A DNA stretch of 64,000 nt from Gammaproteobacteria bacterium (GCA_028819495.1 JAPPLI010000130.1:28649-92648); one strand, 5' to 3'; counted from the stretch's first letter, positions 4,021 through 23,941 are shown. Translations and numbers: made by a program. The notes: generated by a model not told the origin, from the sequence alone.

Positions 4021-4062
4021 GGGGTCAGAGTAAGAAATTCGAAGAATTTTTACTCTGACCCC
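4021..4062. repeat. Type-1 palindromic repeat (GGGGTCAGAGTAA...TTACTCTGACCCC)
   Basis: ggggtcagagtaagaaattcgaagaatttttactctgacccc, identical to the copy at 4633-4674. Confidence 0.9.
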
Positions 4063-4687: not shown

Positions 4688-5305
4688 TCACCCTTTAGTC
4701 ATCCGTTGCCCCTGTAAGTCATAAGCGCACCCGATTATACTTGTCGCGGATTCAAACAGGTCGTTTCCCGATAAGCCGGTCGACTTCAACAGGCGCTGTT
4801 CAAACGCTTCATTGGTTTCAATGCTCCCGTCCCCCCGGATATGCAGGATGGAAGCGACGCGCTGTCGCAGGTGGCGACAAATCAGAATCGTTCTGTGACA
4901 TGTCAGTGGGTCTTCCTCTGCGCACAGCAGGGCAGGCCTGGCTTGACTGGACTTGTCGATTATCCGGTCCAGCGCATCCGCAAACTCCGGTCTGGCAGCG
5001 ATCAAATCATATGATACTTTTCCATTGATGTAGCAATCGGGATCCGGGCTTTTGGCGCCCAGTTCCTTTCCGGAAAAGACGTAATCGATTCCCTTATTCC
5101 TTAACCTCTCGGCAAGCGCCTTCTGACGGAACTGCGGATTTCGCCTACTGTATGGAATGGAACGGACATCAAATACCAGAGAAACAGAAGCCTCTTTCAG
5201 TAACTTGACAAAGTGTTCGATGGGATGCCTGGAATGCCCTACGGTATACAGGACTTTTTCGTTATCGGCCTTTTGCAGGTTTGGCATCACGGAATTTACA
5301 GGCAA
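4688..5305 (-). CDS. DUF488 family protein
   Basis: LYTVGHS...FDVRS.P.SRRNPQF...LLCAEEDPLTCHR is the DUF488 signature as I remember it. The start may instead be the second Met (MPNLQK). Confidence 0.65.
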   Translation of the reverse strand: MPVNSVMPNLQKADNEKVLYTVGHSRHPIEHFVKLLKEASVSLVFDVRSIPYSRRNPQFRQKALAERLRNKGIDYVFSGKELGAKSPDPDCYINGKVSYDLIAARPEFADALDRIIDKSSQARPALLCAEEDPLTCHRTILICRHLRQRVASILHIRGDGSIETNEAFEQRLLKSTGLSGNDLFESATSIIGCAYDLQGQRMTKG

Positions 5306-8270: not shown

Positions 8271-8271
8271 C

Positions 8272-9855
8272 ATGTATGAGAGATCATCCCAACAAATACC
8301 AAAGGGCTGGATAGAAACAACGTTAAATGAAATTGCGTTGTGGGGTTCAGGAGGTACGCCCTCTCGTAAGAATAATAAATTCTACAGGGGTTCTATTCCT
8401 TGGGTTAAGACAGGCGAACTCGGACCAAAATATATACGGTCTGCGCAAGAATATATAACACAAGAAGGTATTCAAAGATCTAGCGCCAAAGTCTTTCCAA
8501 AGGGTTCGGTCGGTATAGCAATGTATGGTGCTACAATTGGAAAGCTATCGATTTGGGGTGCTGATCTCTCAACAAATCAAGCGTGTGCTGTTGCTCAACC
8601 TTGTCTGGAAATACTTAGCTCTGAATTTCTATATTATTTTTTGTTGTCACAAAGGTATGCCTTGATTGAGGCAGGAAAAGGAGGGGCTCAACCGAACATT
8701 TCTCAAGGGCTTTTGAAGGATTGGCCGATTTGTCTACCACCTATTGACGAACAATGTCGGATCGTAGATAAGATAGAAGAACTTTTTTCCGAGTTGGACA
8801 AAGGCATTGAAAGCCTCAAAACTGCCCGTGGACAGCTTAAGGTCTATCGCCAAGCTGTCCTGAAACACGCCTTCGAAGGCAAACTAACGGAGCAGTGGCG
8901 GGAAGAGAATAAGAACAAGCTGGAAACTCCTGAAAGACTACGCACTCGTATCAAAAAAGAGCGTGAGAAGCGTTATCAACAGCAACTTGATCAGTGGAAA
9001 ACTGCTGTCAAGACCTGGGAGGTGGAAGGCAAGAAAGGCAGAAAGCCAAGAAAACCGGGTTTACTTGAACAACCCGAGGTTATCACATCTAACGAAACTA
9101 AATCGCTGCCTAAAATACCCTCCGCTTGGTGCTTTGTCAGACTTTGTGAGATTACAGATATCGGTTCGGGAATGTCAGTTAATAACTCCAGAAAAATTGA
9201 TAATCCTATCAAGGTTCCATATCTTCGTGTAGCAAACGTCCAGAGAGGCTTTTTAGATCTCTCAGAAGTCAAACACATGACAATCGAAATGTCACAGCTA
9301 GATAGTATGGCACTAAAGCAATGGGACATTTTATTTAATGAAGGAGGAGATCGTGACAAGCTTGGTAGAGGCTGGATTTGGCAATCCAAAATTATGCCAT
9401 GCATAACACAAAATCATGTTTTTCGAGCCAGCCCATACTTTCCTTCAAAAGAGCACTCCACTCTAATTTCGCATTGGGGGAATACATTCGGTCAACGATA
9501 TTTTGAAGAGATGGGAAAACAAACGACTAATTTAGCGTCTATCAACAAGACTGTATTGAGCGAATTCCCTGTACCACTGATGTCCATAGATGAACAGGAA
9601 GAGATCTGTAAGCAGATTGATAGCATGATGACACTCATAAATGCCCAACTTGACGAAATATCTGCGGTATTGGAGAAGTCTACAACGTTGCGTCAAGCAA
9701 TATTACGAAGCGCTTTTTCAGGCAAACTTATCCCACAAGACCCAAATGACGAACCTGCTTCTATTCTGTTGGAACGGATAAGAGCAGAGAAAACCGAACA
9801 GGAAAAGACGCATGGGAAAAGTAGTAGGAGAAAAACCGGAGAAGTTATTGTATGA
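8272..9855 (+). CDS. hsdS: Type I R-M specificity subunit
   Basis: Two target-recognition domains, each followed by a conserved helix (LPPIDEQCRIVDKIEELFSELDKG and VPLMSIDEQEEICKQIDSMM...LRSAFSGKL). Start taken at the ATG at 8272, 1 nt after the hsdR TAG. Confidence 0.85.
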   Translation: MYERSSQQIPKGWIETTLNEIALWGSGGTPSRKNNKFYRGSIPWVKTGELGPKYIRSAQEYITQEGIQRSSAKVFPKGSVGIAMYGATIGKLSIWGADLSTNQACAVAQPCLEILSSEFLYYFLLSQRYALIEAGKGGAQPNISQGLLKDWPICLPPIDEQCRIVDKIEELFSELDKGIESLKTARGQLKVYRQAVLKHAFEGKLTEQWREENKNKLETPERLRTRIKKEREKRYQQQLDQWKTAVKTWEVEGKKGRKPRKPGLLEQPEVITSNETKSLPKIPSAWCFVRLCEITDIGSGMSVNNSRKIDNPIKVPYLRVANVQRGFLDLSEVKHMTIEMSQLDSMALKQWDILFNEGGDRDKLGRGWIWQSKIMPCITQNHVFRASPYFPSKEHSTLISHWGNTFGQRYFEEMGKQTTNLASINKTVLSEFPVPLMSIDEQEEICKQIDSMMTLINAQLDEISAVLEKSTTLRQAILRSAFSGKLIPQDPNDEPASILLERIRAEKTEQEKTHGKSSRRKTGEVIV

Positions 9856-11342
9856 ATAGCAGTCACATCAGTTCCAAAGTTTGGAGTTTTTGTACGATAC
9901 TAAAGGATGACGGAGTAAGTTACGGAGACTACCTGGAACAACTCACCTATCTGATCTTTCTGAAAATGGCTGACGAATATGCCAAACCCCCATATAACCG
10001 TGATGTAGGTATTCCTGATGATTACAACTGGCAGAACCTTAAAAGCAAACGCGGGGCTGAACTGGAAAGTCACTACATCGAATCTTTACGTGAACTTGGC
10101 CAGAAGACAGGGATGCTGGGGCAGATATTCACCAAGTCGCAAAACAAAATTCAAGACCCGGCCAAGCTTTTTCGTCTGATCGACATGGTGGATGATGTGC
10201 AATGGGTCTCAATGGGAGCGGATGTCAAAGGCGTGATTTATGAAGATTTGCTGGAAAGGAACGCAGAAGATACCAAATCCGGTGCAGGGCAGTATTTTAC
10301 GCCACGCGCACTGATTCGTGCGATGGTCGAATGTGTTCGTCCAGAGCCGGAAAAGACCATCGCCGATCCAGCCTGTGGTACGGGAGGGTTTTTTCTATCC
10401 ACCTATGACTTCATTACCAATCCAGAGCATTACCGGCTCGACAAAAACCAAAAGGAGTTTCTGAAATACGAAACCTTCCACGGAAACGAAATTGTGGCAA
10501 ACACCCGTCGTCTTTGTCTGATGAATATGTTTCTGCATAACATCGGCGAGATTGATGAGGGTGTTTCAATTTCCCCTAATGATGCACTTGTTGCACCCAG
10601 TTCAATCACTTATGACTATGTTCTTGCCAATCCACCCTTTGGCAAGAAGAGCAGCATGACCTTTACCAATGAAGAGGGTGAGCAAGAAACAGACAATCTG
10701 ACTTATAACAGACAGGACTTTTGGGCTTCTACCTCGAATAAGCAGCTCAATTTTGTCCAACACATCCGCACCATGCTTAAGACGACCGGAAAGGCAGCCG
10801 TCGTCGTCCCGGATAATGTTTTATTCGAGGGAGGAGCAGGAGAGACCGTGCGGTGCAAACTTCTGGAGAATACCGATCTTCATACGATCCTGCGTCTGCC
10901 TACCGGTATATTTTATAAGCCTGGTGTGAAGGCCAACGTGATATTTTTTGACAACCGGGAAGCAAGTCCAAATCCCTGGACTAGGGAAGTCTGGTACTAC
11001 GATTATCGTACCAACGTGCATCACACACTCAAGAAAAAGACAATGCGATATGAAGACCTGGCTGAATTTATCGGATGTTACAACCCGATCAACCGGCATG
11101 AACGGAAAGCCACCTGGGATGCTGATAAAAATCCTGAAGGCCGGTGGCATAGATTCAGCTACGATGAATTGATAACACGTGACAAGACAAGCTTGGACAT
11201 ATTCTGGCTAAAAGACAAGAATCTGACGGACCTTGAAAATCTCCCTGACCCTGATGAGCTTGCTGAGGAGATTATAGAAAATTTAGAAGCAGGACTAAGC
11301 AGTTTTCGTGAAGTATTGGCTGGATTAGAGAAAGGCAACTAA
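9852..11342 (+). CDS. hsdM: Type I R-M N6-adenine DNA methyltransferase subunit
   Basis: HsdM N-domain (YLEQLTYLIFLKM), AdoMet motif ADPACGTGGF and catalytic LANPPFGKK. ATGA overlap with the hsdS stop. Confidence 0.9.
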   Translation: MNSSHISSKVWSFCTILKDDGVSYGDYLEQLTYLIFLKMADEYAKPPYNRDVGIPDDYNWQNLKSKRGAELESHYIESLRELGQKTGMLGQIFTKSQNKIQDPAKLFRLIDMVDDVQWVSMGADVKGVIYEDLLERNAEDTKSGAGQYFTPRALIRAMVECVRPEPEKTIADPACGTGGFFLSTYDFITNPEHYRLDKNQKEFLKYETFHGNEIVANTRRLCLMNMFLHNIGEIDEGVSISPNDALVAPSSITYDYVLANPPFGKKSSMTFTNEEGEQETDNLTYNRQDFWASTSNKQLNFVQHIRTMLKTTGKAAVVVPDNVLFEGGAGETVRCKLLENTDLHTILRLPTGIFYKPGVKANVIFFDNREASPNPWTREVWYYDYRTNVHHTLKKKTMRYEDLAEFIGCYNPINRHERKATWDADKNPEGRWHRFSYDELITRDKTSLDIFWLKDKNLTDLENLPDPDELAEEIIENLEAGLSSFREVLAGLEKGN

Positions 11343-13105
11343 TGGAACAGAATGAATTTGTTGGAAAGTATTGTTTACGCCCGCAGAATTTTGCATGGTT
11401 TCTGGGAGCCGGCACATCCCGCGCCGCCGGCCTGCCAACCGCAACTGACATATTGTGGGATATTAAGCGTCGTTACTATTGTCGAGAAGAGAATCAAGAG
11501 ATATCACGTCAAGATATCCAGAATGAATTTGTTAAGGTTCGTATCCAAGATTTCATGGAATCCAAAGGTTTCCCTAAGTTATGGGCAGATAATGAGTATT
11601 CTGCCTATTTCAATAAAATATTTGGAGATGATAAGGAACGGCAACGTAACTACCTACAGGCAATCTTGTCCGAAGACCATGTGTCCCTGTCAGTAGGGAA
11701 TAGAGTAATGGGAGGTTTACTCTCGTCAGGTCATATTCGGGCTGTATTTACAACAAATTTTGATTCTGTTGTTGAAAAAGCTATAGCTCAAACAGTAGGG
11801 GAATCGTTGTCAGCCTATCATTTAGAAGGTTCAGCATCAGCAAATAACGCTTTGAATAATGAAGAGTACCCTCTCTATGTGAAATTACACGGTGATTTTC
11901 GCTATGAAGCATTGAAAAACCTTCCAGAAGACCTAGAAACACAAAATGAGGAACTTTCTCAGTGTTTCATGAATGCAGCCAATCGATTCGGCTTTATTGT
12001 AATCGGTTATAGCGGACGTGATGTTAGTACTATGGCGCTATTTCGCGATTCTCTGGCTTCAAACAACCCGTTCCCACACGGTCTATATTGGATGGGAATC
12101 AAAGGGGCTCCTATACACCCAGAGGTCAGTGAATTGATGGAGTTAGCGCAAAGTAAAGGTGCACATGCAGACTATGTTGAAATAGAAACATTTGATGCTT
12201 TGATGTTGCGTTTGTGGCGTAATATCGAAGACAAACCGATAGATATAGACAAAAAAATTCGTAGGACCCAGCAGTCAAAAGTGGATATTCCTCTACCGAA
12301 TCCAGGTAAAGCAAATCCAATTATGCGCCTGAATGCCTTACCGGTTTTATCTTTTCCTGAGCAATGCCTGAAACTAACATTTCGAACACCCAAGACATGG
12401 TCGGATTTGAGAAAGGTAGAGAAGGAAACGCCTGGAAATCTGATATTCGTAAAAACAGATGCAGTATGGTGCTGGGGCCTTAAATCCGATGTCAAACAAG
12501 CTTTCCGTGAAGAACTTACATCTGTGGAACAAGTCGATATTCCGAGAGATCTTGCAGCAGTTACCAATCGGCCAATTAAGGGTTTTGTAGAGAAGGCTTT
12601 ATGTATGGCACTTGCACGAAGAAAACCGCTCCTATCCAGATCGACTCGAAATAAAACTTTCCTAATCGCCAATTCGCTTACCGATGATAATAATGCGTTA
12701 CATCCATTGACCGAAATTACCGGTTCGATCTCGGGCATTGTACCGGGTGTATTTACTCCTATTTCTGATGAATATCCACAGGCCGAACAAGTTCGCTGGT
12801 CGGAAGCCGTCCAAGCGTCTCTTGATGTTAAAGACGGTAATCTATGGCTGACACTGAATCCGGATATCTGGATTTGGCCATATAGTGCGCGCGAAATTTC
12901 AGTAGATTTTATGCAAAGAAGACGTAATGATCGGTTTAACAAAAAGTTTAATGACCTAATTAGTACATGGAGCAGAATAATCTTCGGAACAGACGAACTA
13001 AATGTAGAGATTGAGGTATCTAGCTTTGCGGAAGGGAGTGGTGCTCAGAACCCATACTTTCGTCTTGCAAGTCGGACTGCTTTCTCCAAGAAGCTATTGT
13101 CATGA
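11342..13105 (+). CDS. SIR2-APAZ protein (predicted NADase partner of a short Argonaute)
   Basis: 587 aa. SIR2 motifs [18 protein letters not shown] and KLHGDF in the N-terminal half; the C-terminal ~300 aa has no enzyme motif (APAZ-like). Its start overlaps the hsdM stop (TAATG) and its stop overlaps the pAgo start (ATGA). Confidence 0.8.
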
Positions 13106-14514
13106 TAGGACGAGTAAGTGAACTATGTGGTTATACCTCATTGCCAGAGCCAGAACTTTTGTTTAACGATAACGGACGACACAAGCATCCCCTCGTTGGG
13201 TTGATTCAAAATGGCCCATACAGCCTGCAATTCGGAGCACCTAACCAAATTCGATTGGCGCTTCTTGCGCCACGTAATGAGATTAATAAACTTGTAGATC
13301 TTAATACTGAACTTTTGAAGGAAGCAAAGCCAAAAGAAGCGACAAAGTACTATCCAGTTTATCCAGGTTTTAAAGAAGTTTTCAGGATTCCAATCGTAGA
13401 GCAGGATGAGCGATTGGTCTTGTCTTTCCCTGATCAATTAGAAATTCATGCGCGGAGGCGGGAGAAAGTTAAACTCGCCGACGGATTGTTCAACTGTATC
13501 TCACAACTAAAATCGATACGTACCAATTTTGATGTTGCTTTGATTTATTTGCCGGAGAGTTGGGAAGAATGCTTTGAAGACGAAGACTTCGATTTTCACG
13601 ACTATCTTAAGGCCTACTGTGCTCCATCAAATATTCCAATCCAGATTATACGGCAAAAGAGCCTTGACAGAGCATGTCGTGCCAATGTTATGTGGGGCTT
13701 GAGCGTAGCACTGTACGCAAAGGCAGGTGGAATACCATGGAAACTTAGCGGTCTCGGGAGGGACGAGGCGTTTATAGGAATTAGTTATGCCATGAAGTCC
13801 GCATCGGATGGGAATAAGTATACAACGTGTTGTAGCCAAGTATTCTATCCAGATGGTACTGGATTTCGGTTTGTAGCCTATGACACCAGAGAGTTTACCC
13901 AGGATGAACGAGAGAACCCGTACCTTTCTTATTATGAAATGCAATCCGTTTTGTCCCGCAGTCTGGAAATATATCAAAGCGGTCATTTCGGCCGCGTTCC
14001 AAAAAAGGTAACAATTCACAAGAATACCGAGTTTAAAGAAGATGAAATTCTCGGAGCGTTTGATAGCTTTCGTGAAGAAACTGAAGTCGAGCTTGTGCAA
14101 ATTATTAAAAGTATCGATTGGAAAGGGATAAGATTTAACACAGAAAATAGACCAACTCCCCACCAATATCCAGTTGCGCGCGGATCATACTTGCCTATGC
14201 AACCTAATGAAGCATTGTTTTGGTCACAAGGAAGTGTTCAAGGAGTGCATATCGGGAACCCTAGATATAACATTTACAAGGAAGGTAATCTCAAGCCGAC
14301 ACCTTCACCTCTACTCTTACGACGATTTTCAGGTGATGGCGGTTGGCACGAAACCTGCCGCAATATACTCGGGCTTACCAAGATGGACTGGAACAACAAC
14401 ACTCTCTATAAGAAGTTGCCAGTTACGCTCATCTATTCCAAAGCATTTGCCAATATTGTTCAGCAAAATACAAACATGATCGATGAAGTGTACGACTTTA
14501 GAAATTTTATGTAG
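13102..14514 (+). CDS. Short prokaryotic Argonaute (MID-PIWI, catalytically inactive)
   Basis: 470 aa. MID 5'-end pocket pattern DYLKAYC...IQIIRQKS; PIWI hallmark [17 protein letters not shown]. Catalytic positions are substituted (FIGISYA instead of GxD, TIHKNT instead of RDG). Confidence 0.8.
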
Positions 14515-14653: not shown

Positions 14654-14947
14654 ATGGAGATTCGCAAAACGGAAATTTTTGTCGAGTGGCTTGACAATTT
14701 AAGGGACAGCAGGGCTAGAACCCGCATTATTGCCAGACTCGACAGAATGGAAATGGGCAATTTTGGTGATGTGCGGCCTGTTGGTGGCGGTGTTTACGAG
14801 TTACGTATCCATTACGGCCCAGGCTACAGAGTCTATTTTGTCCGATGCGGCCCTGCCGTTGTCATACTTCTTTGTGGCGGCGACAAGAAAACGCAACATG
14901 CAGATATCGCAAAGGCTATAAAGTTAGCCGATAAACTGGAGGACTGA
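14654..14947 (+). CDS. Type II toxin, RelE/ParE superfamily (HigB-like addiction module killer)
   Basis: 97 aa. GGGVYELRIHYGPGYRVYF core; the toxin gene precedes the antitoxin, as in HigBA. Confidence 0.8.
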   Translation: MEIRKTEIFVEWLDNLRDSRARTRIIARLDRMEMGNFGDVRPVGGGVYELRIHYGPGYRVYFVRCGPAVVILLCGGDKKTQHADIAKAIKLADKLED

Positions 14948-14950
14948 GGC

Positions 14951-15244
14951 ATGGCCCTTGCAACAACCCGCTGGGATTCAGCAGAACATCTCAAAACCGA
15001 AGAAGATATCCGGCTTTACCTGGAAGCCTGTCTTGAAGAAGCAGGGGATGACCCTGCATTCATAGTGCACGCCTTGAGTGTTGTTGCCCGTGCGCGCAAT
15101 ATGAGCCAGTTGGCCAGGGAAACAGGTCTGACCCGAGAGGGTCTGTATAAGGCATTGTCAGGTGATGGAAATCCAACTTTTGCCAACGTAGCAAAGGTGG
15201 CAAAAGCCCTTGGATTCAAACTGACCATACAACCCGTGCTTTGA
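14951..15244 (+). CDS. HigA-family HTH antitoxin (addiction module antidote)
   Basis: 97 aa. HTH MSQLARETGLTREGLYKALSGDGNPTFANVAKVAKALG. Starts 3 nt after the toxin stop. Confidence 0.8.
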   Translation: MALATTRWDSAEHLKTEEDIRLYLEACLEEAGDDPAFIVHALSVVARARNMSQLARETGLTREGLYKALSGDGNPTFANVAKVAKALGFKLTIQPVL

Positions 15245-15406: not shown

Positions 15407-16555
15407 ATGATTAAGCGAAATATATGGTTAAAGCAGCTTGAGAATGGCTGGTCTCGTCGTTCTATTGTGTGGCTATCCGGTGTACGGCGGGTGGGTAAGA
15501 CAACACTTGCAAGGATGCTGCCCGATGCATTCTACCTGAATTGTGACCTGCCTTCTGTGCACAGGACCCTGGAAGAACCGGAGTTGTTTCTTGATAGCCA
15601 GGCTCCTGACCGGGTATTGATTCTTGACGAGGTGCATCGCCTTGATGATCCGAGCAGGTTGCTGAAGATCGCTGCTGATGAATATCCGCATTTGCGGATA
15701 CTGGCCACGGGCTCCTCCACCCTGGCAGCAACCCGCAAGTTCCGTGACTCGCTCACCGGGCGCAAACAGGCCATCCATCTCTGTCCGGTATTGTGGGAAG
15801 AGTGCGAAGATTCCTTCGCTGTTCGCGACCTGGACCGGCGTTTGCTGTCCGGCGGTTTGCCCGAAGCATTGCTGGCAGCCGGCAAGGATCCTGCCTTTTT
15901 CAATGAGTGGCTTGACAGTTTCTACGCCCGGGACATTCTGGAACTGTTCGGGATACGTAATCGCCGGGGATTCCTGTCCCTGTTCAGGCTCCTGCTGCGC
16001 CAGAGCGGAGGGCAATTGGACTACGGCCGTCTGTCGAGCCTGAGCGAACAAAGCAGGCCCACGGTCAAATCACACGTTGAAGCCTTGCAGGTTGCCCACG
16101 CGGTGTTCCTGTTACCCCCTTTTCACGGCGGGGGCAAACGCGAGATAGTCAGCCGTCCGAAGTGTTATGCTTTCGATACCGGGTTCGTCACCTTTGAAAA
16201 AGGCTGGGACAACATCAGGGAGGACGATCGCGGCCTGCTGTGGGAACACCTGGTACTGGATGCCCTGCGTTTTCAACACGCTGATAAAGATATATTCTAC
16301 TGGCAGGATAAATCACGCCGCGAGGTGGATTTTGTGGTCCGGCGCACTCGTGACCGGGTAGACGCAATTGAATGCAAAATCAACCCTGACAGGTTCAATA
16401 CCGTCTCTGTTGAAACATTCCGATCCATATACCCTCACGGCGAAAACTATATTGTCTCACCCCACCTGAAAAGCGCCTATCGCATACGCCGGAACGACAT
16501 CATCTATACCGTGTGTACGGTTAAGGACTTAATACGGCTGCAAAGCGCAGAATAG
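15407..16555 (+). CDS. AAA-type ATPase with C-terminal DUF4143 (PD-(D/E)xK-like) domain
   Basis: Walker A GVRRVGKTT, Walker B LILDEVH, and C-terminal EVDFVV...DAIECK nuclease-fold-like motif. Its stop is 1 nt from the convergent peptidase stop. Confidence 0.75.
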   Translation: MIKRNIWLKQLENGWSRRSIVWLSGVRRVGKTTLARMLPDAFYLNCDLPSVHRTLEEPELFLDSQAPDRVLILDEVHRLDDPSRLLKIAADEYPHLRILATGSSTLAATRKFRDSLTGRKQAIHLCPVLWEECEDSFAVRDLDRRLLSGGLPEALLAAGKDPAFFNEWLDSFYARDILELFGIRNRRGFLSLFRLLLRQSGGQLDYGRLSSLSEQSRPTVKSHVEALQVAHAVFLLPPFHGGGKREIVSRPKCYAFDTGFVTFEKGWDNIREDDRGLLWEHLVLDALRFQHADKDIFYWQDKSRREVDFVVRRTRDRVDAIECKINPDRFNTVSVETFRSIYPHGENYIVSPHLKSAYRIRRNDIIYTVCTVKDLIRLQSAE

Positions 16556-16556
16556 C

Positions 16557-18761
16557 TTACAGCTTCTCCAGGAAATAATCGGTGATCCTGGTAAACAGGT
16601 GCGGTCGCACGTCGTCCAGGTCATGGCGCTGGTTCGGGTAGATCATCATGTCAAACTGTTTGTTGGCGGCGATCAGGGCGTGGGCCAGCTGCAGCGTGAA
16701 ACCGTACTTGACGTTTTCATCGCCGGTGCCGTGGATCAGCAGCAGGTTGCCCTGCAGCCGGTCGGCGAAGTTCATCAGGTCGACTTCATAGTAACCCCGC
16801 CGGTTGTTCTCGTAGGAATCCATCCAGCGTTCCACGCCGTAGGCCTGGTAGCGGTTCAGGTCGATGACCGGCGCGATACTGACCGCGGTTTTGAAGTGCG
16901 GAGCGCCCTTGGTCATAAGCGCCGCGGCCAGGTAGCCACCGCCGCTCCAACCCCAGAAGCCGAGTCTGTCCGCGTCCACGTAGGGCAGGGATTTCAGGTA
17001 GTTGACGCCTTCGAGGTAGTCGAGGACGGCGTATTTCCCGTAGTGCCCGTAGGTCAGGTTTTTCGCCGCCTTGCCTCTCCCGGCGGTTGTGCGATTGTCC
17101 ACGGCGAAGATGATATAGCCTTGTGCGGCCATGTAGCGGTGCCAGAGATCCTGTTTCGTGTTCTGCTGCCACGGCGAGGTCACCCACCTGTTGACCACCA
17201 CCTGTGAACCGGCATTGCCGTAGCCGTGGCCTATGACGGGGTATTTTTTCCCGGGATCAAAATCGGGCGGTTTAATCATGTAGCCGTCGATCAGTATGCC
17301 GTCACCGGTTTCCACCTTGATGAATTCCGCACGAGGTATTGTGTACTTGTCCATTGCCGCCGAATTGCCTGTTTCGAGCACACCTATTTCCTCTCCATTC
17401 GCCTTGCGCAGGGTCATGCCGGGCGGTGTGCCGGCATCCGACCAGGTCTCGATCACCAGCCGCCGGTCCGGCGAAAACTGCCACTCATGCCAGCCCGGCC
17501 TGTCCGTCAGCCTTTCCAGCTTCGAACCATCGAGCGTCACCCTGTATACATGCTGATCGATGAATGAATCCTTCTTCGCGTAGAAATACAGCCAGCCCGC
17601 GCCCTCATCGAGGGCGATAAGCGTAGAGATTTCCCAGTCTCCGCCGGTCAACTGCGTTTCGTTTCCATCATAGTCGTACAGGTAGGCATGGCGATACCCG
17701 CTTTTCTCCGAGGTCCAAACGAAGCGTTCCCGGTGCTTGAAAAACCGCAGATCATTCGTGACCTCCACCCAGGCCGTATCGGTATCCCTGACAATGGCTC
17801 CGGTTTTGCCGGTGGCGGTATCGGCAAGCAGCAGGACAAGCTCATCGTGGTCCCTGGCCTGGGTCTGGATAGCAAGCCGGCCAGATGAATTCGTCCAGTT
17901 GACCCTGGGAATATAGTCATCGGGATTGCCGCCGGTATCCATCCAGACTGTCCGTCCGCGTTCCAGGTCGAACATGCCTATCCGGGTGACTGCGAGACGC
18001 TCGCCGGTGTTCGGGTATTTCAGCGCGCGGACGGTATTGTATTTGCCCAGTTCATCCACCATGTAGAATACTTTTACGCCGGTGACATCCATCCTCCAGA
18101 ACGCGATCTTGTTCCCGTCAGGCGACCACGACCAGGCCTGCCCGGCGCCGAACATCCTGCTGCCGTAATCAAAATAACCGTTGAAGATATTGGCATCGCC
18201 GTCCGTCGTTACCGCGCGCGTGGTTCGATCATCCAGTTCCGTGACGTAGATGTTGTTGTCCAGCACGTAACCCACCCGCGCGCCGTTCGGCGATAGCTGC
18301 ACATTGAGCAGGCGCGGGTTGTTGTCGGCCAGCGGCCAGAGTTCACCACTACCGGTTTCATGGATGTAATAAGCTGCTTCCTTCCTGCCATCCCACGTAG
18401 TACTGACCGGGCCCGCCAGCAGGATATAGCGGCGGTCTGCAGTCCACCGGCACCGGGTCATTCCGACAGGTTCGTTCCGGTACCGGAGCGCATCACCGGA
18501 AATGATCAACCGGGAGGCGCCGGCGGCAACGTCGTATTCATGGATATCAAGCAGGCCGGTATCCGGGTCGGTTCTTGTGAAGGTGAAACGCTTTGAGTCG
18601 CTATGCCACTGGATGTTTTGCGGCAAACGGTTGTCAAATTCACTGCCGGCAAAAATGCTTTCCAGGGTCAACGGCAGCCTGTCCTGTCCGGCAACGCATG
18701 CCGTCCCGCTGAAAAACAGCAGGGACGCTGCCAGCGCCGGCAGAAGTTTATGGCACGTCAT
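16557..18761 (-). CDS. S9 family peptidase (dipeptidyl-peptidase IV-like), exported
   Basis: 734 aa with a signal peptide, a beta-propeller N-region and the catalytic triad context FWGWSGGGY, IHGTGDENV and NQRHDL. Confidence 0.85.
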   Translation of the reverse strand: MTCHKLLPALAASLLFFSGTACVAGQDRLPLTLESIFAGSEFDNRLPQNIQWHSDSKRFTFTRTDPDTGLLDIHEYDVAAGASRLIISGDALRYRNEPVGMTRCRWTADRRYILLAGPVSTTWDGRKEAAYYIHETGSGELWPLADNNPRLLNVQLSPNGARVGYVLDNNIYVTELDDRTTRAVTTDGDANIFNGYFDYGSRMFGAGQAWSWSPDGNKIAFWRMDVTGVKVFYMVDELGKYNTVRALKYPNTGERLAVTRIGMFDLERGRTVWMDTGGNPDDYIPRVNWTNSSGRLAIQTQARDHDELVLLLADTATGKTGAIVRDTDTAWVEVTNDLRFFKHRERFVWTSEKSGYRHAYLYDYDGNETQLTGGDWEISTLIALDEGAGWLYFYAKKDSFIDQHVYRVTLDGSKLERLTDRPGWHEWQFSPDRRLVIETWSDAGTPPGMTLRKANGEEIGVLETGNSAAMDKYTIPRAEFIKVETGDGILIDGYMIKPPDFDPGKKYPVIGHGYGNAGSQVVVNRWVTSPWQQNTKQDLWHRYMAAQGYIIFAVDNRTTAGRGKAAKNLTYGHYGKYAVLDYLEGVNYLKSLPYVDADRLGFWGWSGGGYLAAALMTKGAPHFKTAVSIAPVIDLNRYQAYGVERWMDSYENNRRGYYEVDLMNFADRLQGNLLLIHGTGDENVKYGFTLQLAHALIAANKQFDMMIYPNQRHDLDDVRPHLFTRITDYFLEKL

Positions 18762-19615
18762 TCGATGTTTTGTACCTGCTCGCGCATCTGTTCGATCAGC
18801 ACCTTGAGTTCAATCGATGCGTTGCTGGTATCGACGTGGGCAGACTTGGAACCCAGGGTGTTGGCCTCGCGGTTCATTTCCTGCATCAGGAAATCCAGGC
18901 GCCTGCCCATGGGTTCGGTTTCCGCCAGCACCCGCCTGACTTCGTTGATATGTGTCTCCAGGCGGTCCAGTTCCTCATCCACGTCCAGTTTCTGTGACAA
19001 CAGGGCGATCTCCTGCTCCACCCGGCCGTTATCCAGTTCAATGTTGAGTTCCCGGATCCGTTCCATTTGGCGTTCGCTGAGTGCGGTAATGATTTCCGGC
19101 ACCTTTGTCCGCATCTGTGAGACCTGGTCCAGGGCAAGCCCGCAACGGTCTTCGATCATCCGGCCGGTTTTCTCTCCTTCCCGGAGCCGGTTGTCGACAA
19201 TGTCCTGCAGCGCGCTGTCCAGCAGGACGAGCAGGCATGCGCCGGTTTGTTCCAGGTCGGGCGTATTCTTCTCGATCACGCCGGGCCAGCGCAGGATGTC
19301 GACCGGGTTGAGCGGGGCGGGGTTATCGACGGGCAGGCTGCGGGATGCCTGGATGATTTTTTCGGTGAGCCTGGTGTTGACGGCAATATTGTCCAGGGTG
19401 GAGTCCGCATCGTAGCGCAGGTTGCATTCCACCTTGCCGCGCTTGAGCCGGTCCGATATGCGTTCCCTGACGCCGCTTTCCAGGACGCGTAATTCCTCGG
19501 GCAAGCGGATTGAAACATCGAGGTAGCGGTGGTTTACCGTGCGGATTTCCCACACCGCATGGCCCCATTCGCCGGAGTCCTCCAGCCGGGCAAAAGCAGT
19601 CATGCTGGAAACCAT
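18758..19615 (-). CDS. yicC: YicC family stress-induced protein (endoribonuclease YicC)
   Basis: 285 aa. SMTAFAR...WEIRTVNHRYLD...REANTLGSKS are YicC signatures. ATGA overlap with the downstream peptidase start. Confidence 0.85.
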   Translation of the reverse strand: MVSSMTAFARLEDSGEWGHAVWEIRTVNHRYLDVSIRLPEELRVLESGVRERISDRLKRGKVECNLRYDADSTLDNIAVNTRLTEKIIQASRSLPVDNPAPLNPVDILRWPGVIEKNTPDLEQTGACLLVLLDSALQDIVDNRLREGEKTGRMIEDRCGLALDQVSQMRTKVPEIITALSERQMERIRELNIELDNGRVEQEIALLSQKLDVDEELDRLETHINEVRRVLAETEPMGRRLDFLMQEMNREANTLGSKSAHVDTSNASIELKVLIEQMREQVQNIE

Positions 19616-19663: not shown

Positions 19664-20854
19664 TTATTTCTTCCACAGGGTTACTTTGAAATAATCTTCA
19701 GTTGCTTCAAAATCCGGTTCCGTGCCGTTGTGTTTTTTCATCAAGGGTATAACTTTCTGGCGGATACCCATTCCCTGGTGTTCTACGTAACCATAGTCCC
19801 TGAATATTCTGGTAGTATGAGGATTACGTTGAATTGTCACGCCATTTTTCATCTTTTCGACTGTCATCCCATTTGGTAAGGAACCAGGACTAACGATTTC
19901 AAGACGGTCAGAGTACGCAACCACGCGCACATAATCCTGTTTAGTCCAGTCTCGATGGACCAGCGCATTTATCAAGAGCTCTCTGACTGTTTCTTCAGGG
20001 TAATCCCACATTCGTCTGCGCGTCATTCCCTCTAGCTGTTCACGACTGATGTATTCTTTTATTTGTGGGTTTCCGTGCAGTGGAGGTTCAACGGGTTCAT
20101 TGTTTTGGAGGTCTCCCCGGTATTCCATTAAGGGCAGGTTGAAGATTTTGTCAAACCTGGAACTGTAGTCCTTATCTGCTCCTTCATATACGGTCAGTCT
20201 TAACCCGGCTTGCGGCAGTCTTAGTTGCGGTGATCTGGCAAATAAAGCGTAGGCGAAATAACTGCAAAAGAGGCTAGTGTGTTCACCCACCAGGAAACTG
20301 TGATCTGCCAGCAGGCCTTGTACATCAGTTTGCTGATGCCGCAGAATTCTCTTGAAATACTCGTTATAACGCCGCTCATCCAGATCTGCGAGTGAGGAAC
20401 CATAAACGGGTAATTTCTCTGCTGACAGCAATCCCCCCGTATCAAATAACCTAGCTTGCTGTTCGCGCCCGGCTAACTGACAAGTATCGCCGTAGCGCAC
20501 GTAGATATCTTCACGGTCATTATGTCGAAGCACATAAGGCTTACCGGTACCCTGGTGAATTTTGACGACTGCCACTCTATATTCATCAACAGCTACTTCT
20601 TCATAATCCGGCAAGACAAAGGGATGCACGTGTCTACCAATCACCGTATCCATCAGCCATGCCTGAAGATTTTCCCTGTGAATGCCAGTTATAAGACCAT
20701 CATTTTCGACACCAACCAATATAGTTCCGCCGTTCATGTTGGCAAAGGCAACAATTTCCTTTGCCATTGTTTCGGGACGTACGTCATCCCGTTTGAAATC
20801 CAGCTTTGCGCCTTCTTTCTGGTTGAGAAGGGTCAATAGTTCACTTGGTAGCAT
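19664..20854 (-). CDS. AlbA_2 (Schlafen-like) domain protein with a C-terminal HATPase_c_4/wHTH-like region
   Basis: N-terminus EGAKLDFKRD...AKEIVAFANMNGGTILVGVENDG (AlbA_2). C-terminus ELLINALVHRDW...RLEIVSPGSLPNGMT...RNP...IFRDYGYVEHQGMGI. Starts 9 nt downstream of the PHP-ATPase stop. Confidence 0.7.
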   Translation of the reverse strand: MLPSELLTLLNQKEGAKLDFKRDDVRPETMAKEIVAFANMNGGTILVGVENDGLITGIHRENLQAWLMDTVIGRHVHPFVLPDYEEVAVDEYRVAVVKIHQGTGKPYVLRHNDREDIYVRYGDTCQLAGREQQARLFDTGGLLSAEKLPVYGSSLADLDERRYNEYFKRILRHQQTDVQGLLADHSFLVGEHTSLFCSYFAYALFARSPQLRLPQAGLRLTVYEGADKDYSSRFDKIFNLPLMEYRGDLQNNEPVEPPLHGNPQIKEYISREQLEGMTRRRMWDYPEETVRELLINALVHRDWTKQDYVRVVAYSDRLEIVSPGSLPNGMTVEKMKNGVTIQRNPHTTRIFRDYGYVEHQGMGIRQKVIPLMKKHNGTEPDFEATEDYFKVTLWKK

Positions 20855-20863
20855 TAGTTAGCT

Positions 20864-23548
20864 CTAAAATCCGTATTTTCTCTTGCGCATTTCAAAGGCT
20901 GCTTTGCCGCCTTCCAATATCTCTGCTGCTTTTTCACGTATTGCCGGTTTATCGATAGAACCCTCTTCAAAACTCCCAGCATCTCTGTTACTTTCTAAAA
21001 CCGCAATCAACTCAGCGTCGCCAAATACGGGAATATTCGCATTATGGGTAGCAAACAAGAATTGCCTGTTTGTTTTGAACTTTCGTAAATCCTGCACTAT
21101 ACGGTTTGCGATAAAGGCATTATCCAAGTTATCTTCCGGTTGGTCGATAATTAGGGGATCATCTCTACTCAACAACAATAAGTTCAGAATAGCGGTACAT
21201 TTTTGCCCGATAGAAAGCATATTTAATGGTACAAAATGTTCTTCGGCATCCTCATGTGCGGTGTTGAGTTCAATTTCCACGGTATCCATGAGTTCAATTT
21301 CTTCCAATTCCAGGCATTGCTCAGGTTCAAGGCTGCACAATTTATCCGCCACGCTCAGGGTCATTCCTAATGGTTTGTATGCGTTCAGAAAAGCATCTGA
21401 GTTACTTTCTTTAATCCACTTAGCCCATTGAATCAAGTCCAAGTTGTCGCGCGCATGTTCTAACCATTCAATTTTTGTTGTCCCAATTCCACTCAAGCTG
21501 AGTAAAAAAGTTTTGAGATTATCCAGGTTGCCCTTCTGTTTGATAGCAATTCTTACTTTTCCTTCCAATTGTTTGTTGACTTCTTTTGTGGATTTATCCA
21601 TGGCAGAGTATCGAGAAAAGGCCAGATTTCGATAATCTTCCAGCAAATTGTCACGTTCTGACCTGAGTTCTCCGAGGATCTTTCCCTGATTCTCATGAGT
21701 CCGTTTTAGCCTTTCAACTTTTGTTAGTTGCGCAATTATATTGGTATATTCTGAACCTAACTGACTACCGGTTTTGCCAGCTTGTTCGGGTAACTGAGCA
21801 ATTGCATTGTTTAAATCATCACGAACGCTATCTCGTTTTTCATCCCATTTCAGGAGCACACCATGATATTCCGATTTGGCGCTTGTAACAGCTTCATTAG
21901 CTTTTTGAACCAGCATATCAATAGCATTCTTCAGGTTTACAACAATCCTTACTGCTTCTTCAATGATCTCAGCACTTGGTAAGTTTTTTATATTCTCGTC
22001 CTGAAGGAACGCAAGATCAAAAACTTCCCGGTAGTTTTCCAACCAGCCATCGATGGTATTCAGTTGCTCCTCAATATTTTTTTGAATATTCTTTTCACGT
22101 TCAATTAAACGAACATTTTTCAATTTTTCTTCTATGCCGAGTTTTTTGAATTGTTCAACCTGTTCTTTAAGTTTTGCTTCTTTCGCGACCTCCGTATCAA
22201 GACGCTCATGCTCATTGGTTGCCTCGAGGAGCTGTTCCCGGTTTTTTTTCAGTTTGTTTTTGATTTCGCCAATACGCTGTTTAAACTGCTCACTGTTAGA
22301 TAAAAAGCGGCTCGTGAGGTCGAGCTTTGCCTTTTCATCTTTCTCGATTTCAAGTATTTCATTTTGTCCCAGGATTTCGATATCTGGCAAGATTTCGTCA
22401 GGCCGTAGATAAGACACCTCGTTCTGCTCACTCTTCACTACCGGTTGCTCACCATATCGTCTGCTGATGCTATAGATATTTCCATTTTGAGCCTTTGAGC
22501 GTGCTTGCAAAATAACTTGAGAATCTCTCAAAGTAGTTCTACGTAGGCTGTCTTTCTCGTCTCCGCCTCGAGTCGGCGCATCTAAAACATATCTGATACT
22601 CTCAATCAGGGTGGATTTCCCGGCACCTCGACCACCGATTACTACATTTAAATTTTGGGAGAAAGTCAGACTTTTTTCTCTGAAAAAGCCAGCGCCGCGC
22701 CATTGAATGGATTCAATTATGGAATAAGGCTGCTCTGGCACATCATGATTAAGACGAATTCTTGATTCAGGATCTAAAAAAGCCTGTTTGAACGCCTCAA
22801 AATTGGCATCTGTCATTTTGATTAAACAGGAAGCAGATTTGTGTTTCAGATGATCCGGGTCCTTAATATCTTTTGCGTTAATGATTGCAATTGGCTTATC
22901 TCGCCGATAGTCGGGATTTTTGTTTTCAATAATCTCTCGATATTTTTTTAATTCTTCTTGTACTTCCTGCAAATCTTCTATCCTTCCAGGAATTTGCCCG
23001 GCTATGACGAGTTCCTCTTTCTTCCATAATTGAACATAATTCCCGCCACTACCATCCAACTTCAGCAGCCCATTTCTTCCGGTCATGTGTGCGGCGTACC
23101 AAAAACCTCCTTGAGTATTTATCACTTTACCGGCGATTTGCTCACAACTTAGTGAGGATGGATGAGTTGGCTCTTGGTCAAGTTTGGCGCTGTTTTCCCC
23201 CATCAACTGCCCAAGGTTTTGGTTGAGAGTTGCCAAGGAGCTATTTTCAGGATACAGACATACCATATGAATTTTTTCAGAACTGGCAATCTCGAATCCT
23301 GGAAACACGGCGATTCCATTTGTTGTCAAAAAATTCTGTAGTTCTTCTGAATCCTCAACTCTGCCATGATCAGCAAGCCCCACGACTTCAATTTCGTTAG
23401 CTTGGCATTGCTGCAAAATTTTCTGGTTGTAGTTCGCCTCGTCTTGAGTTTCTTCACCGCGATACTGGTTATAACTATATGGATTCACCTGCAAGGCGCA
23501 CTTGTAAAATCGGGCGCCTTGATAGGTATCCAGGTTTTCGTTATTCAT
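20864..23548 (-). CDS. PHP-domain phosphoesterase fused to an ABC/SMC-like ATPase (PplA-like candidate defence protein)
   Basis: 894 aa. N-terminal PHP motifs (VVGLADHGRV, GFEIASSEKIHMVCLY); Walker A GGRGAGKST; a long coiled-coil region; signature-like LSIGQKCTA; Walker B LIIDQPEDNLD; H-loop FATHNANI. Confidence 0.7.
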   Translation of the reverse strand: MNNENLDTYQGARFYKCALQVNPYSYNQYRGEETQDEANYNQKILQQCQANEIEVVGLADHGRVEDSEELQNFLTTNGIAVFPGFEIASSEKIHMVCLYPENSSLATLNQNLGQLMGENSAKLDQEPTHPSSLSCEQIAGKVINTQGGFWYAAHMTGRNGLLKLDGSGGNYVQLWKKEELVIAGQIPGRIEDLQEVQEELKKYREIIENKNPDYRRDKPIAIINAKDIKDPDHLKHKSASCLIKMTDANFEAFKQAFLDPESRIRLNHDVPEQPYSIIESIQWRGAGFFREKSLTFSQNLNVVIGGRGAGKSTLIESIRYVLDAPTRGGDEKDSLRRTTLRDSQVILQARSKAQNGNIYSISRRYGEQPVVKSEQNEVSYLRPDEILPDIEILGQNEILEIEKDEKAKLDLTSRFLSNSEQFKQRIGEIKNKLKKNREQLLEATNEHERLDTEVAKEAKLKEQVEQFKKLGIEEKLKNVRLIEREKNIQKNIEEQLNTIDGWLENYREVFDLAFLQDENIKNLPSAEIIEEAVRIVVNLKNAIDMLVQKANEAVTSAKSEYHGVLLKWDEKRDSVRDDLNNAIAQLPEQAGKTGSQLGSEYTNIIAQLTKVERLKRTHENQGKILGELRSERDNLLEDYRNLAFSRYSAMDKSTKEVNKQLEGKVRIAIKQKGNLDNLKTFLLSLSGIGTTKIEWLEHARDNLDLIQWAKWIKESNSDAFLNAYKPLGMTLSVADKLCSLEPEQCLELEEIELMDTVEIELNTAHEDAEEHFVPLNMLSIGQKCTAILNLLLLSRDDPLIIDQPEDNLDNAFIANRIVQDLRKFKTNRQFLFATHNANIPVFGDAELIAVLESNRDAGSFEEGSIDKPAIREKAAEILEGGKAAFEMRKRKYGF

Positions 23549-23563
23549 GTCTTAGCTATTGCC

Positions 23564-23632
23564 GGGGTCAGAGTAAAATGCTTGAGTCCAGCGGCACAAC
23601 CCGCCAGATTGCTTGCATTTTACTCCGACCCC
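23564..23632. repeat. Type-1 palindromic repeat (long-loop variant)
   Basis: ggggtcagagtaaaatgc ...33 nt... gcattttactccgacccc, with one arm mismatch. Confidence 0.85.
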
Positions 23633-23769
23633 CTATATTTGGCAAAAGTTAGCGGGAGCCGCTGAGATACGAGTGGCTGCTGAAAACAGGACACGGAGAT
23701 AGCATGGAGACCGTTTTTCAGTTCTATTAATCAAAAGGTTATAATGGCGGAGAATACCCGGTTCAATTG

Positions 23770-23941
23770 GAGATTACCCATGCGCGCCAGTGGAGGCGAA
23801 CTGATAGAGATCCAGGGCACCGCGGAAGGTCATCCGTTTACCTTCGCCGAACTGGAACAGATGCTGGCGCTGGCCAGGACGGGCATCGAAAGCCTGTTTG
23901 CCATCCAGACCGCGGCGCTCAGCTTTCAGCGACCGGACTAA
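23770..23941 (+). pseudogene. rph: RNase PH, C-terminal relic only (about the last 55 codons)
   Basis: [47 protein letters not shown] aligns with the E. coli RNase PH C-terminus ([43 protein letters not shown], recalled from memory). The N-terminal ~180 codons are absent. Confidence 0.75.

Follow-up and report, generated by a model that had tools for sequence, protein, structure and literature searches.

A further copy of the trlF–trlG gene pair in an uncultured gammaproteobacterium: a candidate defence cassette combining an SMC/Rad50-like ATPase with a predicted Schlafen nuclease

The 64,000-nucleotide stretch of DNA analysed here (hereafter the window; GCA_028819495.1, JAPPLI010000130.1:28649-92648) comes from a metagenome-assembled genome (MAG) of an uncultured gammaproteobacterium and carries, on its minus strand, two tightly coupled genes that sequence comparison identifies as a copy of the named trlF–trlG pair of the Photorhabdus temperature restriction locus (TRL) operon. 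The trlF gene (20864..23548) encodes an 894-amino acid TrlF-family protein in which a PHP-like domain is joined to an SMC/Rad50-like ABC ATPase (open reading frame (ORF) translation, NCBIfam, Pfam). Downstream, trlG (19664..20854) encodes a 396-amino acid protein predicted to combine a Schlafen/AlbA_2 nuclease with a GHKL-like HATPase_c_4 domain (ORF translation, Pfam, AlphaFold2 (AF2)/Foldseek), and the ORF coordinates leave a spacer of 9 nt between the two (20855..20863), suggestive of operon-like coupling. An earlier note on this DNA had picked out both ORFs and their 9-nt separation, and its coordinates are exact on the reading frames. On balance, we lean towards reading trlFG as a horizontally acquired, abortive-type candidate defence cassette in which TrlF would be the sensor or gate and TrlG the Schlafen effector.

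The larger protein matches the NCBIfam model NF045780 ('TrlF family AAA-like ATPase'; cutoff 350 bits) end to end with a score of 529.6 bits, residues 11-893 being aligned to model positions 2-944; Pfam recognises SMC_N, AAA_21 and AAA_23 in it. In comparison with the Photorhabdus akhurstii proteins, identity is 44% for the window TrlG (full length, E=4e-118) and ~41% for the window TrlF. The reference locus is the trlR-trlF-trlG operon of Photorhabdus laumondii, termed the 'temperature restriction locus' (Hapeshi et al. 2020, PMC7554251), whose trlG product, made up of AlbA_2 and HATPase_c_4, had been misannotated as recG (PMC7554251). The two loci agree in the proteins that they encode, in gene order, in the tight spacing and in domain architecture. 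They differ in chromosomal site, polA|dsbA for the TRL operon and yicC|rph for the MAG-borne pair in the window, and in the gene for the 79-amino acid small regulator TrlR, which lies upstream of trlF in the TRL operon and is missing from the window: no fitting ORF is found upstream of the window trlF, and a profile hidden Markov model built from two TrlR-like sequences gave no match in the six-frame translation of the window.

Relatives of the pair were collected at one genome per species (at least 563 confirmed), and the best 80 loci were examined. Since trlR is present in 2 of these 80 loci and absent from the window, the conserved unit is trlF–trlG. The earlier note had taken the pairing to be undescribed and possibly a new two-component system, a view that has to be given up, since the pair already has a name, trlF/trlG, as part of the TRL operon (PMC7554251; NF045780). 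In literature searches under TrlF, TrlG, Schlafen plus PHP, and Ppl plus PHP plus ATPase, the pair turned up in the 2020 TRL paper alone, and trlFG was nowhere described as a defence system.

The 80 loci span more than 12 phyla and one archaeon, taking in Gamma-, Beta-, Alpha-, Delta- and Zetaproteobacteria, Nitrospirota, Bacteroidota, Chloroflexota, Planctomycetota, Acidobacteriota, Verrucomicrobiota, Firmicutes, Spirochaetes, Chlamydiales and an ANME-1 archaeon. In 65 of them the gene next downstream of trlF, on the same strand, encodes a TrlG homologue. Across these 65 pairs the median trlF–trlG spacer is 9 nt, all but three (62/65) fall within +/-30 nt, and in some the stop and start codons overlap. 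Elsewhere in 1.26 Mb of flanking DNA there are five AlbA_2 matches, and these include one frameshifted TrlG and one TrlG separated by an insertion sequence (IS). The bit scores of TrlF and TrlG also co-vary from pair to pair (Spearman 0.87). By sequence, then, trlF and trlG are strongly conserved as a unit, paired beyond chance and co-diverging, and the co-occurrence that the earlier note had wanted measured is borne out. In one locus (L069:10630-13650, a Candidatus Poriferisocius MAG) an element of ~2.2 kb sits between trlF and a shortened trlG ORF; it carries a serine-recombinase-like ORF and a 545-amino acid ORF, and looks IS607/TnpB-like by eye.

TrlG has the features of a Schlafen-family nuclease. 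Pfam places AlbA_2 (PF04326) at residues 14-127 (E=1.5e-22) and HATPase_c_4 at residues 309-393 (E=4e-21), and alignment identifies a predicted catalytic motif, E14-x4-D19-x-K21 (20792..20815, minus strand), that corresponds to the Schlafen Ex4(E/D)xK motif; all 63 of the TrlG sequences aligned carry E14, D/E19 and K21. This is the catalytic motif of prokaryotic Schlafens as defined by Taboada et al., the Cash structures show an E-D-K triad with a Mg2+ centre, and prokaryotic Schlafens bearing the motif are tRNases that give abortive defence (Taboada et al.; Cash study). An AF2 model of TrlG (pLDDT 86) finds its best full-length Foldseek match in 3lmm, an uncharacterised AlbA_2-HATPase_c_4 protein. 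Its N-terminal half matches human SLFN14, SLFN12, SLFN11, SLFN13 and SLFN5 together with the SAMD9 tRNase domain, and its C-terminal half matches the CA (GHKL) domains of histidine kinases. For 13 published Photorhabdus TrlG substitutions, the numbering of S16, V35, A36 and R126 was verified against the P. akhurstii orthologue and the rest were left unused; V35I and A36V map to the Slfn core, and S16N to a position within the catalytic motif.

The HATPase_c_4/GHKL-like domain of TrlG (19676..19930, minus strand) is defined by Pfam, conservation and Foldseek, and E292, N296, H300, R301, D302, S322-P323-G324, G361 and G363 are invariant in this half of the protein. TrlG ends with this domain, without a winged helix-turn-helix (wHTH), and longer relatives have a C-terminal extension. 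TrlF–TrlG fusions were looked for among the long TrlG homologues and rejected, the extra length consisting of C-terminal extensions and not of TrlF. Two of the three domains that the earlier note gave to this protein, AlbA_2 and HATPase_c_4, are thus recovered by Pfam and the wHTH-like one is lost, and the suggestion that the second gene might encode a regulator is made unlikely by the invariant nuclease triad and the lack of a wHTH.

Comparison with described prokaryotic Schlafens (pSlfn), namely RorSlfn5, DUF262-Slfn, Cash, SLFN-pAgo and the BREX-linked Slfn-HisK-wHTH proteins, shows that TrlG shares their Slfn/AlbA_2 fold and Ex4(E/D)xK triad. Its Slfn plus HisKinase-clan layout is the most frequent pSlfn class, making up 34% of prokaryotic Schlafen architectures and being the commonest stand-alone form (Taboada et al.). 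Linkage to restriction–modification (R-M) and BREX loci is likewise common to both, as is a growth-arrest phenotype, seen for TrlG in Photorhabdus. Slfn-HisK-wHTH proteins in BREX loci have been catalogued as autonomous 'backup suicidal effectors'. TrlG, however, has none of the Ig-like, Csx15, Ago or wHTH sensors of these proteins and adjoins instead a gene for a large PHP-ABC ATPase, a pairing of which there is no mention in the pSlfn papers compared.

The ABC ATPase motifs of TrlF, that is Walker A, the signature LSxGQ, the Walker B DQPED and the H-loop, are invariant across TrlF loci. In the window protein Walker A reads GGRGAGKST (G305-T313; 22610..22636, minus strand), with G305, G306, G308, G310 and K311 invariant. 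The signature LSIGQK (778-783), the Walker B/D-loop segment IIDQPEDNLD (800-809) and the H-loop H835 lie within 21029..21217 on the same strand, and here S779, G781, Q782, D802, Q803, P804, E805 and H835 do not vary. The Pfam SMC_N match is split over residues 290-839, with ~340 residues between the two halves of the head. Judging by the split match and by conservation, this insert (residues ~400-740; 21329..22351, minus strand) probably forms a coiled-coil arm, on which AIAQLPxQAGKSG (P587, G591, G594) would be a conserved apex motif. An alignment-based profile search of PDB sequences with TrlF returned the heads of SMC3 and Rad50, the latter aligned to residues 289-486. With all motifs present and a long insert splitting the head, TrlF has the architecture of an SMC/Rad50-type ABC ATPase, as read from its sequence.

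Several known families were considered for TrlF and rejected. Models for Rad50, SMC and RecF score 14-27 bits (the Rad50 models 17-27), the cutoffs for Rad50 and SMC being 700-1000, and no Mre11/SbcD partner gene was found among the neighbours of trlF in the window, so that assignment to Rad50/SbcC housekeeping repair, the outcome that the earlier note had named as fatal to its proposal, fails on the profile scores. For Lamassu, PARIS, Gabija, Septu and MADS mad3 the matches are partial and confined to the P-loop or signature, those to the AriA, GajA, LmuB and PtuA models being weak (E=1e-8 to 1e-5, PADLOC), and none of the cognate partners LmuA/C, AriB, GajB or PtuB is found in the window. 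As to the motifs that the earlier note had listed, GGRGAGKST, LSIGQK, IIDQPEDNLD and ATHNANI, all are present in the 894-residue translation, and the SbcC/OLD/Lamassu-like layout that it deduced from them stands as a description of domain architecture; membership of Lamassu or Rad50/SbcC does not, on the profile scores.

By sequence, the N-terminal domain of TrlF is hard to place: the Pfam PHP match has E=0.019, below the gathering score, and a sequence-only search of the PDB with this domain gave a single marginal match, 9etk, with E=0.35. The fold is much clearer. An AF2 model of residues 1-272 (22733..23548, minus strand) has a pLDDT of 88 and a pTM of 0.88, and in a Foldseek search of the PDB its top 26 matches are all PHP domains with probability 1.00, among them PsfC, RNase AM, Pol III alpha and PolC, the best with E=1.6e-6. 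The modelled structure thus confirms a divergent PHP (beta/alpha)7-barrel fold at the N-terminus of TrlF, and with it the PHP-ATPase fusion that the earlier note had proposed and that Pfam alone had left marginal.

It is at the metal ligands that this PHP domain departs from its relatives. In motif I the canonical HxH is replaced by Q20-x-N22 (ALQVN), invariant in 80 of 80 loci. In motif V the window protein has D227-I-K, the TrlF proteins of the window, Photorhabdus and Pseudomonas reading D-x-K/A, and the position of the motif V histidine is not conserved across the 80 loci. D60/H61, E86, H94, H154 and D227 are kept. The natural comparison is with Ppl, a PHP-ATPase that Gao et al. are said to have described in 2020 as a single-gene anti-phage system. 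The Ppl protein of plasmid pEC15-NDM-5 retains both motif I (DFHNHT) and motif V (GSDAH). Because Ppl keeps these residues while 80 of 80 TrlF proteins read QxN and do not conserve the motif V histidine, the TrlF clade has lost three canonical histidine ligands, and, as far as the sequences tell, the QxN replacements have been held invariant while the ligands kept by Ppl were lost.

TrlF is homologous to Ppl over its full length (PADLOC Ppl E=9e-35; NCBIfam 154 bits), the PADLOC match itself being partial (residues 69-322), and the two are laid out alike, with PHP at the N-terminus and then an ABC ATPase interrupted by a long insert. Identity between them is 27-29%, confined to two segments. 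The canonical DFHNHT of Ppl corresponds to ALQVN in TrlF and its GSDAH to D-x-variable, and where Ppl acts alone, TrlF mostly has a Schlafen partner (in 65 of the 80 loci, the window included). Ppl models exist both in NCBIfam (NF042955, cutoff 1000 bits) and in PADLOC (PDLC02208). Membership of Ppl was rejected for TrlF, which scores 154.1 bits with NF042955 and differs in PHP motif I; the earlier note's impression of a resemblance to Ppl therefore holds as homology and not as a Ppl variant. A published summary of the mechanism (PMC12904381) describes Ppl as a single-stranded DNA 3'-5' exonuclease that works as a single gene, is held off by nucleoside triphosphates (NTPs) and is activated by NTP depletion together with 3'-OH ends. 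Sensing of DNA ends or NTPs is probably a related property in TrlF.

Two plasmid-borne proteins seen in these comparisons deserve a remark. A solo protein of the E. coli E2348/69 plasmid pMAR2 (L165:4545-7166) is labelled 'TrlF family' in RefSeq and has motif I as DFHLHT, and because of this the annotated TrlF family mixes HxH and QxN PHP sites. The Ppl gene of pEC15-NDM-5 (L164:4767-7442) adjoins a gene for a DUF4238 protein.

The genomic settings of trlFG point to defence. In four loci (L024, L027, L032 and L055) the gene order is hsdM-hsdS-trlF-trlG-hsdR-YgjP, with trlFG in operon orientation; in L010 trlFG is followed by PglZ and BrxL of a BREX system; and in L169 the order is mod-trlF-trlG-res, within a type III R-M system. 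Solo TrlF genes lie directly behind BrxL or hsdMSR in L018, L036, L044 and L045. With a handful of probes, R-M or BREX genes were found in the flanks of at least 19 of the 80 loci, and when the genes nearest to the pair in 26 loci were run through PADLOC as a batch, type I/III R-M and BREX families dominated. Genes of the TrlF family and Ppl are found on 868 plasmid records, for the most part conjugative, and frequently stand beside toxin–antitoxin (TA) and partition genes. The phyletic distribution of trlFG is sporadic. In the window the GC content is 0.39-0.47 over trlF–trlG against 0.56-0.62 in both flanks, in keeping with the AT-richness that the earlier note had remarked on.

What is known of the pair experimentally comes from Photorhabdus. 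Deletion of the operon relieves the growth arrest of P. laumondii at 36 C, and supplying it in trans brings the arrest back; transcription of the TRL operon goes up on temperature upshift (PMC7554251). In spontaneous mutants that tolerate 36 C, trlG is hit by substitutions, stop codons or IS insertions, making TrlG the determinant of growth arrest, and all mapped temperature-tolerant mutations fall in trlG and none in trlF, a 2.2-fold larger target (PMC7554251). The lack of trlF mutants in spite of this larger target argues that TrlF is not needed for the activation of TrlG under heat. This fits a restraining or guard role for TrlF, or its independence of TrlG.

The mechanism that we propose is as follows. 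TrlG would be the toxic effector, a Schlafen-family endoribonuclease and most likely a tRNase, that halts translation and growth, and its GHKL-like domain would regulate this activity. TrlF would be the surveillance component. Like Ppl, it would probably respond to DNA ends and/or the nucleotide pool, and it would gate TrlG, the main nuclease role lying elsewhere than with TrlF. Four elements of this scheme are inferred: that the pair acts against phages, that TrlG cleaves tRNA, that TrlF is the sensor, and which of the two controls the other. Any specific direction of control between TrlF and TrlG is put forward tentatively, and we would give it somewhat less than an even chance. The broadest version of the idea is that trlFG is a widespread two-gene anti-phage system in which a Ppl-derived ATPase that has lost its PHP ligands gates a Schlafen tRNase, with the Photorhabdus temperature restriction as heat-triggered autoimmunity; this is a reasonable possibility that falls a little short of being the probable one. 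If true, TrlG would be the first Schlafen effector under the trans control of an ABC/SMC-type surveillance ATPase, and the repeated insertion of trlFG into R-M and BREX operons would be explained as the addition of a backup layer.

A number of observations weigh against such a cassette, or against parts of it. Phage-challenge data for trlFG were absent from the literature searched, and PADLOC v2 is without a model for the pair. The Photorhabdus genetics argue against a simple scheme in which TrlF activates TrlG. Catalysis might still be possible with the invariant Q20 and N22, in which case TrlF may remain a nuclease, and ATP binding by the GHKL-like domain of TrlG is uncertain because the canonical DxGxG aspartate is absent (S-P-G in its place). 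Nor are the partners always together. TrlF is solo in ~10 of the 80 loci, with a TrlF-family score and the same QxN PHP site, and two close TrlG homologues are solo, with intact catalytic residues and without any trlF remnant; since both solo forms occur, the two genes are not strictly dependent on each other and TrlF is not an obligate antitoxin. The single clear TrlF orthologue on a viral contig (L087:6001-8652, IMG/VR UViG_3300028580_000125; 40% identity, full length) has no TrlG detectable in its flanks. Finally, the association with R-M and BREX genes was counted without a matched control gene set. Other viral matches are distant TrlF relatives that lack the PHP domain and align from residue ~273 on.

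The main rival, which we regard as unlikely, is that two independent single-gene defences travel together as layered immunity, TrlF being a Ppl-like DNA-targeting protein and TrlG a self-contained Schlafen-HisK tRNase. Much of the above can be read in this way: Ppl acts as a single gene, among prokaryotic Schlafens no stand-alone architecture is commoner than Slfn-HisKinase, Slfn-HisK(-wHTH) proteins in BREX loci count as autonomous backup effectors, TrlF and TrlG both occur naturally as solo genes, and the Photorhabdus phenotype requires TrlG alone. A pair that keeps one order, one strand and one spacing in 65 of 80 loci across phyla, and whose members co-diverge, is however more tightly knit than the usual defence-island neighbourhood. 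The PHP site of TrlF, moreover, is without the histidine ligands that Ppl retains, and TrlG, when linked to TrlF, lacks the wHTH of its BREX-linked relatives.

Less probable again is the original proposal of a physiological growth regulator, a temperature or stress brake on replication or growth that would synchronise the life cycle or limit IS activity. The sole experimental phenotype, temperature restriction with temperature-induced transcription in Photorhabdus, is what this proposal was built on (PMC7554251). It sits badly with a sporadic spread suggestive of horizontal gene transfer, which takes in more than 12 phyla as well as an archaeon and numerous conjugative plasmids, and with the embedding of the pair in R-M and BREX operons. 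The presumed regulator, trlR, accompanies the pair in so few loci and is missing from the window, and a switch at 36 C has no obvious role in the source of the window, a MAG.

A TA-like addiction cassette, with TrlG as toxin and TrlF as its neutraliser, stabilising islands, plasmids or R-M operons, strikes us as slightly more improbable still. TrlG is toxic in Photorhabdus, the survivors there include no trlF loss-of-function mutants, and the family is frequent on plasmids beside TA and partition genes, all of which speaks for such a cassette; the solo TrlG genes, whose catalytic residues are intact and which have no trlF remnant beside them, show, on the other hand, that TrlF is not an obligate antitoxin, and an 894-amino acid ATPase with invariant catalytic motifs would be an atypical one. 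The notion of a housekeeping SbcC/Rad50-type repair ATPase with an accessory DNA-binding regulator, for which the weak Rad50/SMC similarity of the head and older annotations of TrlG as 'RecG-like' or 'DNA-binding' might be cited, is effectively refuted by the profile scores and the distribution, the pair being absent from most genomes, low in GC and variable in insertion site; the missing Mre11/SbcD partner also speaks against it, as does TrlG having a nuclease triad and not a helicase, with the real recG encoded elsewhere.

Among known systems, the closest functional analogues of trlFG are PARIS (AriA/AriB), P2 OLD, PrrC and RloC, with which it would share the proposed logic of a surveillance ATPase of ABC/Rad50-like type coupled to a tRNA-targeting nuclease. 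PrrC and RloC are anticodon nucleases embedded in R-M (hsd) loci; trlFG resembles them in also lying within type I R-M operons. P2 OLD is described as a tRNase in a preprint. The nuclease folds of these systems (Toprim, the PrrC anticodon-nuclease domain) are unrelated to the Schlafen fold of TrlG, however, and TrlF adds a PHP domain, so that the likeness is one of analogy and not of membership.

The window pair has a defence island for a neighbour, and trlFG lies 3-5 kb from its PDC-S01, SIR2-APAZ/short pAgo and type I R-M genes. The island comprises a PDC-M45B-like gene (4688-5305, minus strand), a type I R-M set hsdR/hsdS/hsdM (5502-11342, plus strand), SIR2-APAZ (11342-13105) together with a class I short pAgo (13102-14514), a Gp49/HigB-like toxin (14654-14947), a HigA-like antidote (14951-15244) and PDC-S01, an AAA_14/DUF4143 ATPase (15407-16555); the GC content falls to ~0.41 at 14.0-14.7 kb. 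A defence context, in line with the earlier note's candidate defence pair, is thus found both here and in the R-M and BREX embedding of the relatives. Taken as a whole, that note's candidate defence cassette survives, its unnamed system and its Ppl variant do not, and its regulatory second gene is unlikely.

On one side the pair is flanked by the housekeeping gene yicC (18758..19615, minus strand; Pfam YicC-like_N and YicC-like_C) and on the other, 195 bp from trlF, by an rph remnant (23780..23941, plus strand) and then rdgB. Comparison with intact relatives shows that rph is a pseudogene by internal deletion: ~190 codons are lost, and the native start (MRASGG) is joined to codon ~195, leaving the beginning of RNase PH fused to residues ~195-237. 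The remnant keeps its native upstream region. In one relative (L086, 8896-14975) a trlFG pair 81% identical to that in the window occupies the same yicC|rph junction beside an intact 239-amino acid rph, from which it follows that the trlFG insertion is older than the rph lesion and is not its cause. A second relative (L166, 1242-7091) has a solo trlG at yicC|rph, again with an intact 239-amino acid rph and without a trlF remnant, the trlG being preceded by a gene for an unrelated FG-GAP/Peptidase_M10_C/HemolysinCabind protein. These comparisons mark the yicC|rph junction as a variable hotspot in the lineage of the window. Of the earlier note's picture of a pair wedged between yicC and a truncated rph, the yicC flank is confirmed by Pfam; the rph gene was not truncated by the insertion, having suffered an internal deletion and kept its own start. 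Barring a second copy elsewhere, the organism is probably without RNase PH.

Target-site duplications and integrase signatures were sought around the insertion, and tRNA and Rfam elements at the locus, and none was found. The best promoter match upstream of trlF is a weak sigma-70-like candidate, TTGCCA-17-TAAAAT (23617..23645, minus strand), in a scan of the locus region for promoters and terminators in which such sites were no more frequent than in shuffled sequence. A 19-nt repeat bracketing the rph remnant was considered as an insertion signature and discarded, since it is a dispersed REP-like element. This element, an intergenic 16-mer ATTTTACTC[T/C]GACCCC, occurs 12 times in the window against 0.15 expected (positions 4047, 4659, 23564, 23617, 23942, 29056, 29107, 35259, 35309, 45729, 51490 and 58300), often as inverted pairs ~50 nt apart, one of which (23564-23632) lies between trlF and the rph remnant.

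The locus in the window is, in itself, an ordinary further copy of a named and mechanistically unexplained pair. What is new here is comparative: a conserved trlF–trlG core without trlR, the replacement of Ppl's HxH by QxN among the metal ligands of the PHP domain, the invariance of the TrlG nuclease triad and the embedding of the pair in R-M and BREX loci. These comparative results make both a defence role for trlFG and the interpretation of temperature restriction as autoimmunity directly testable. If confirmed, they would link temperature restriction in Photorhabdus to immune autoactivation, and the Schlafen immune nucleases common to bacteria and humans would gain a member regulated in trans.

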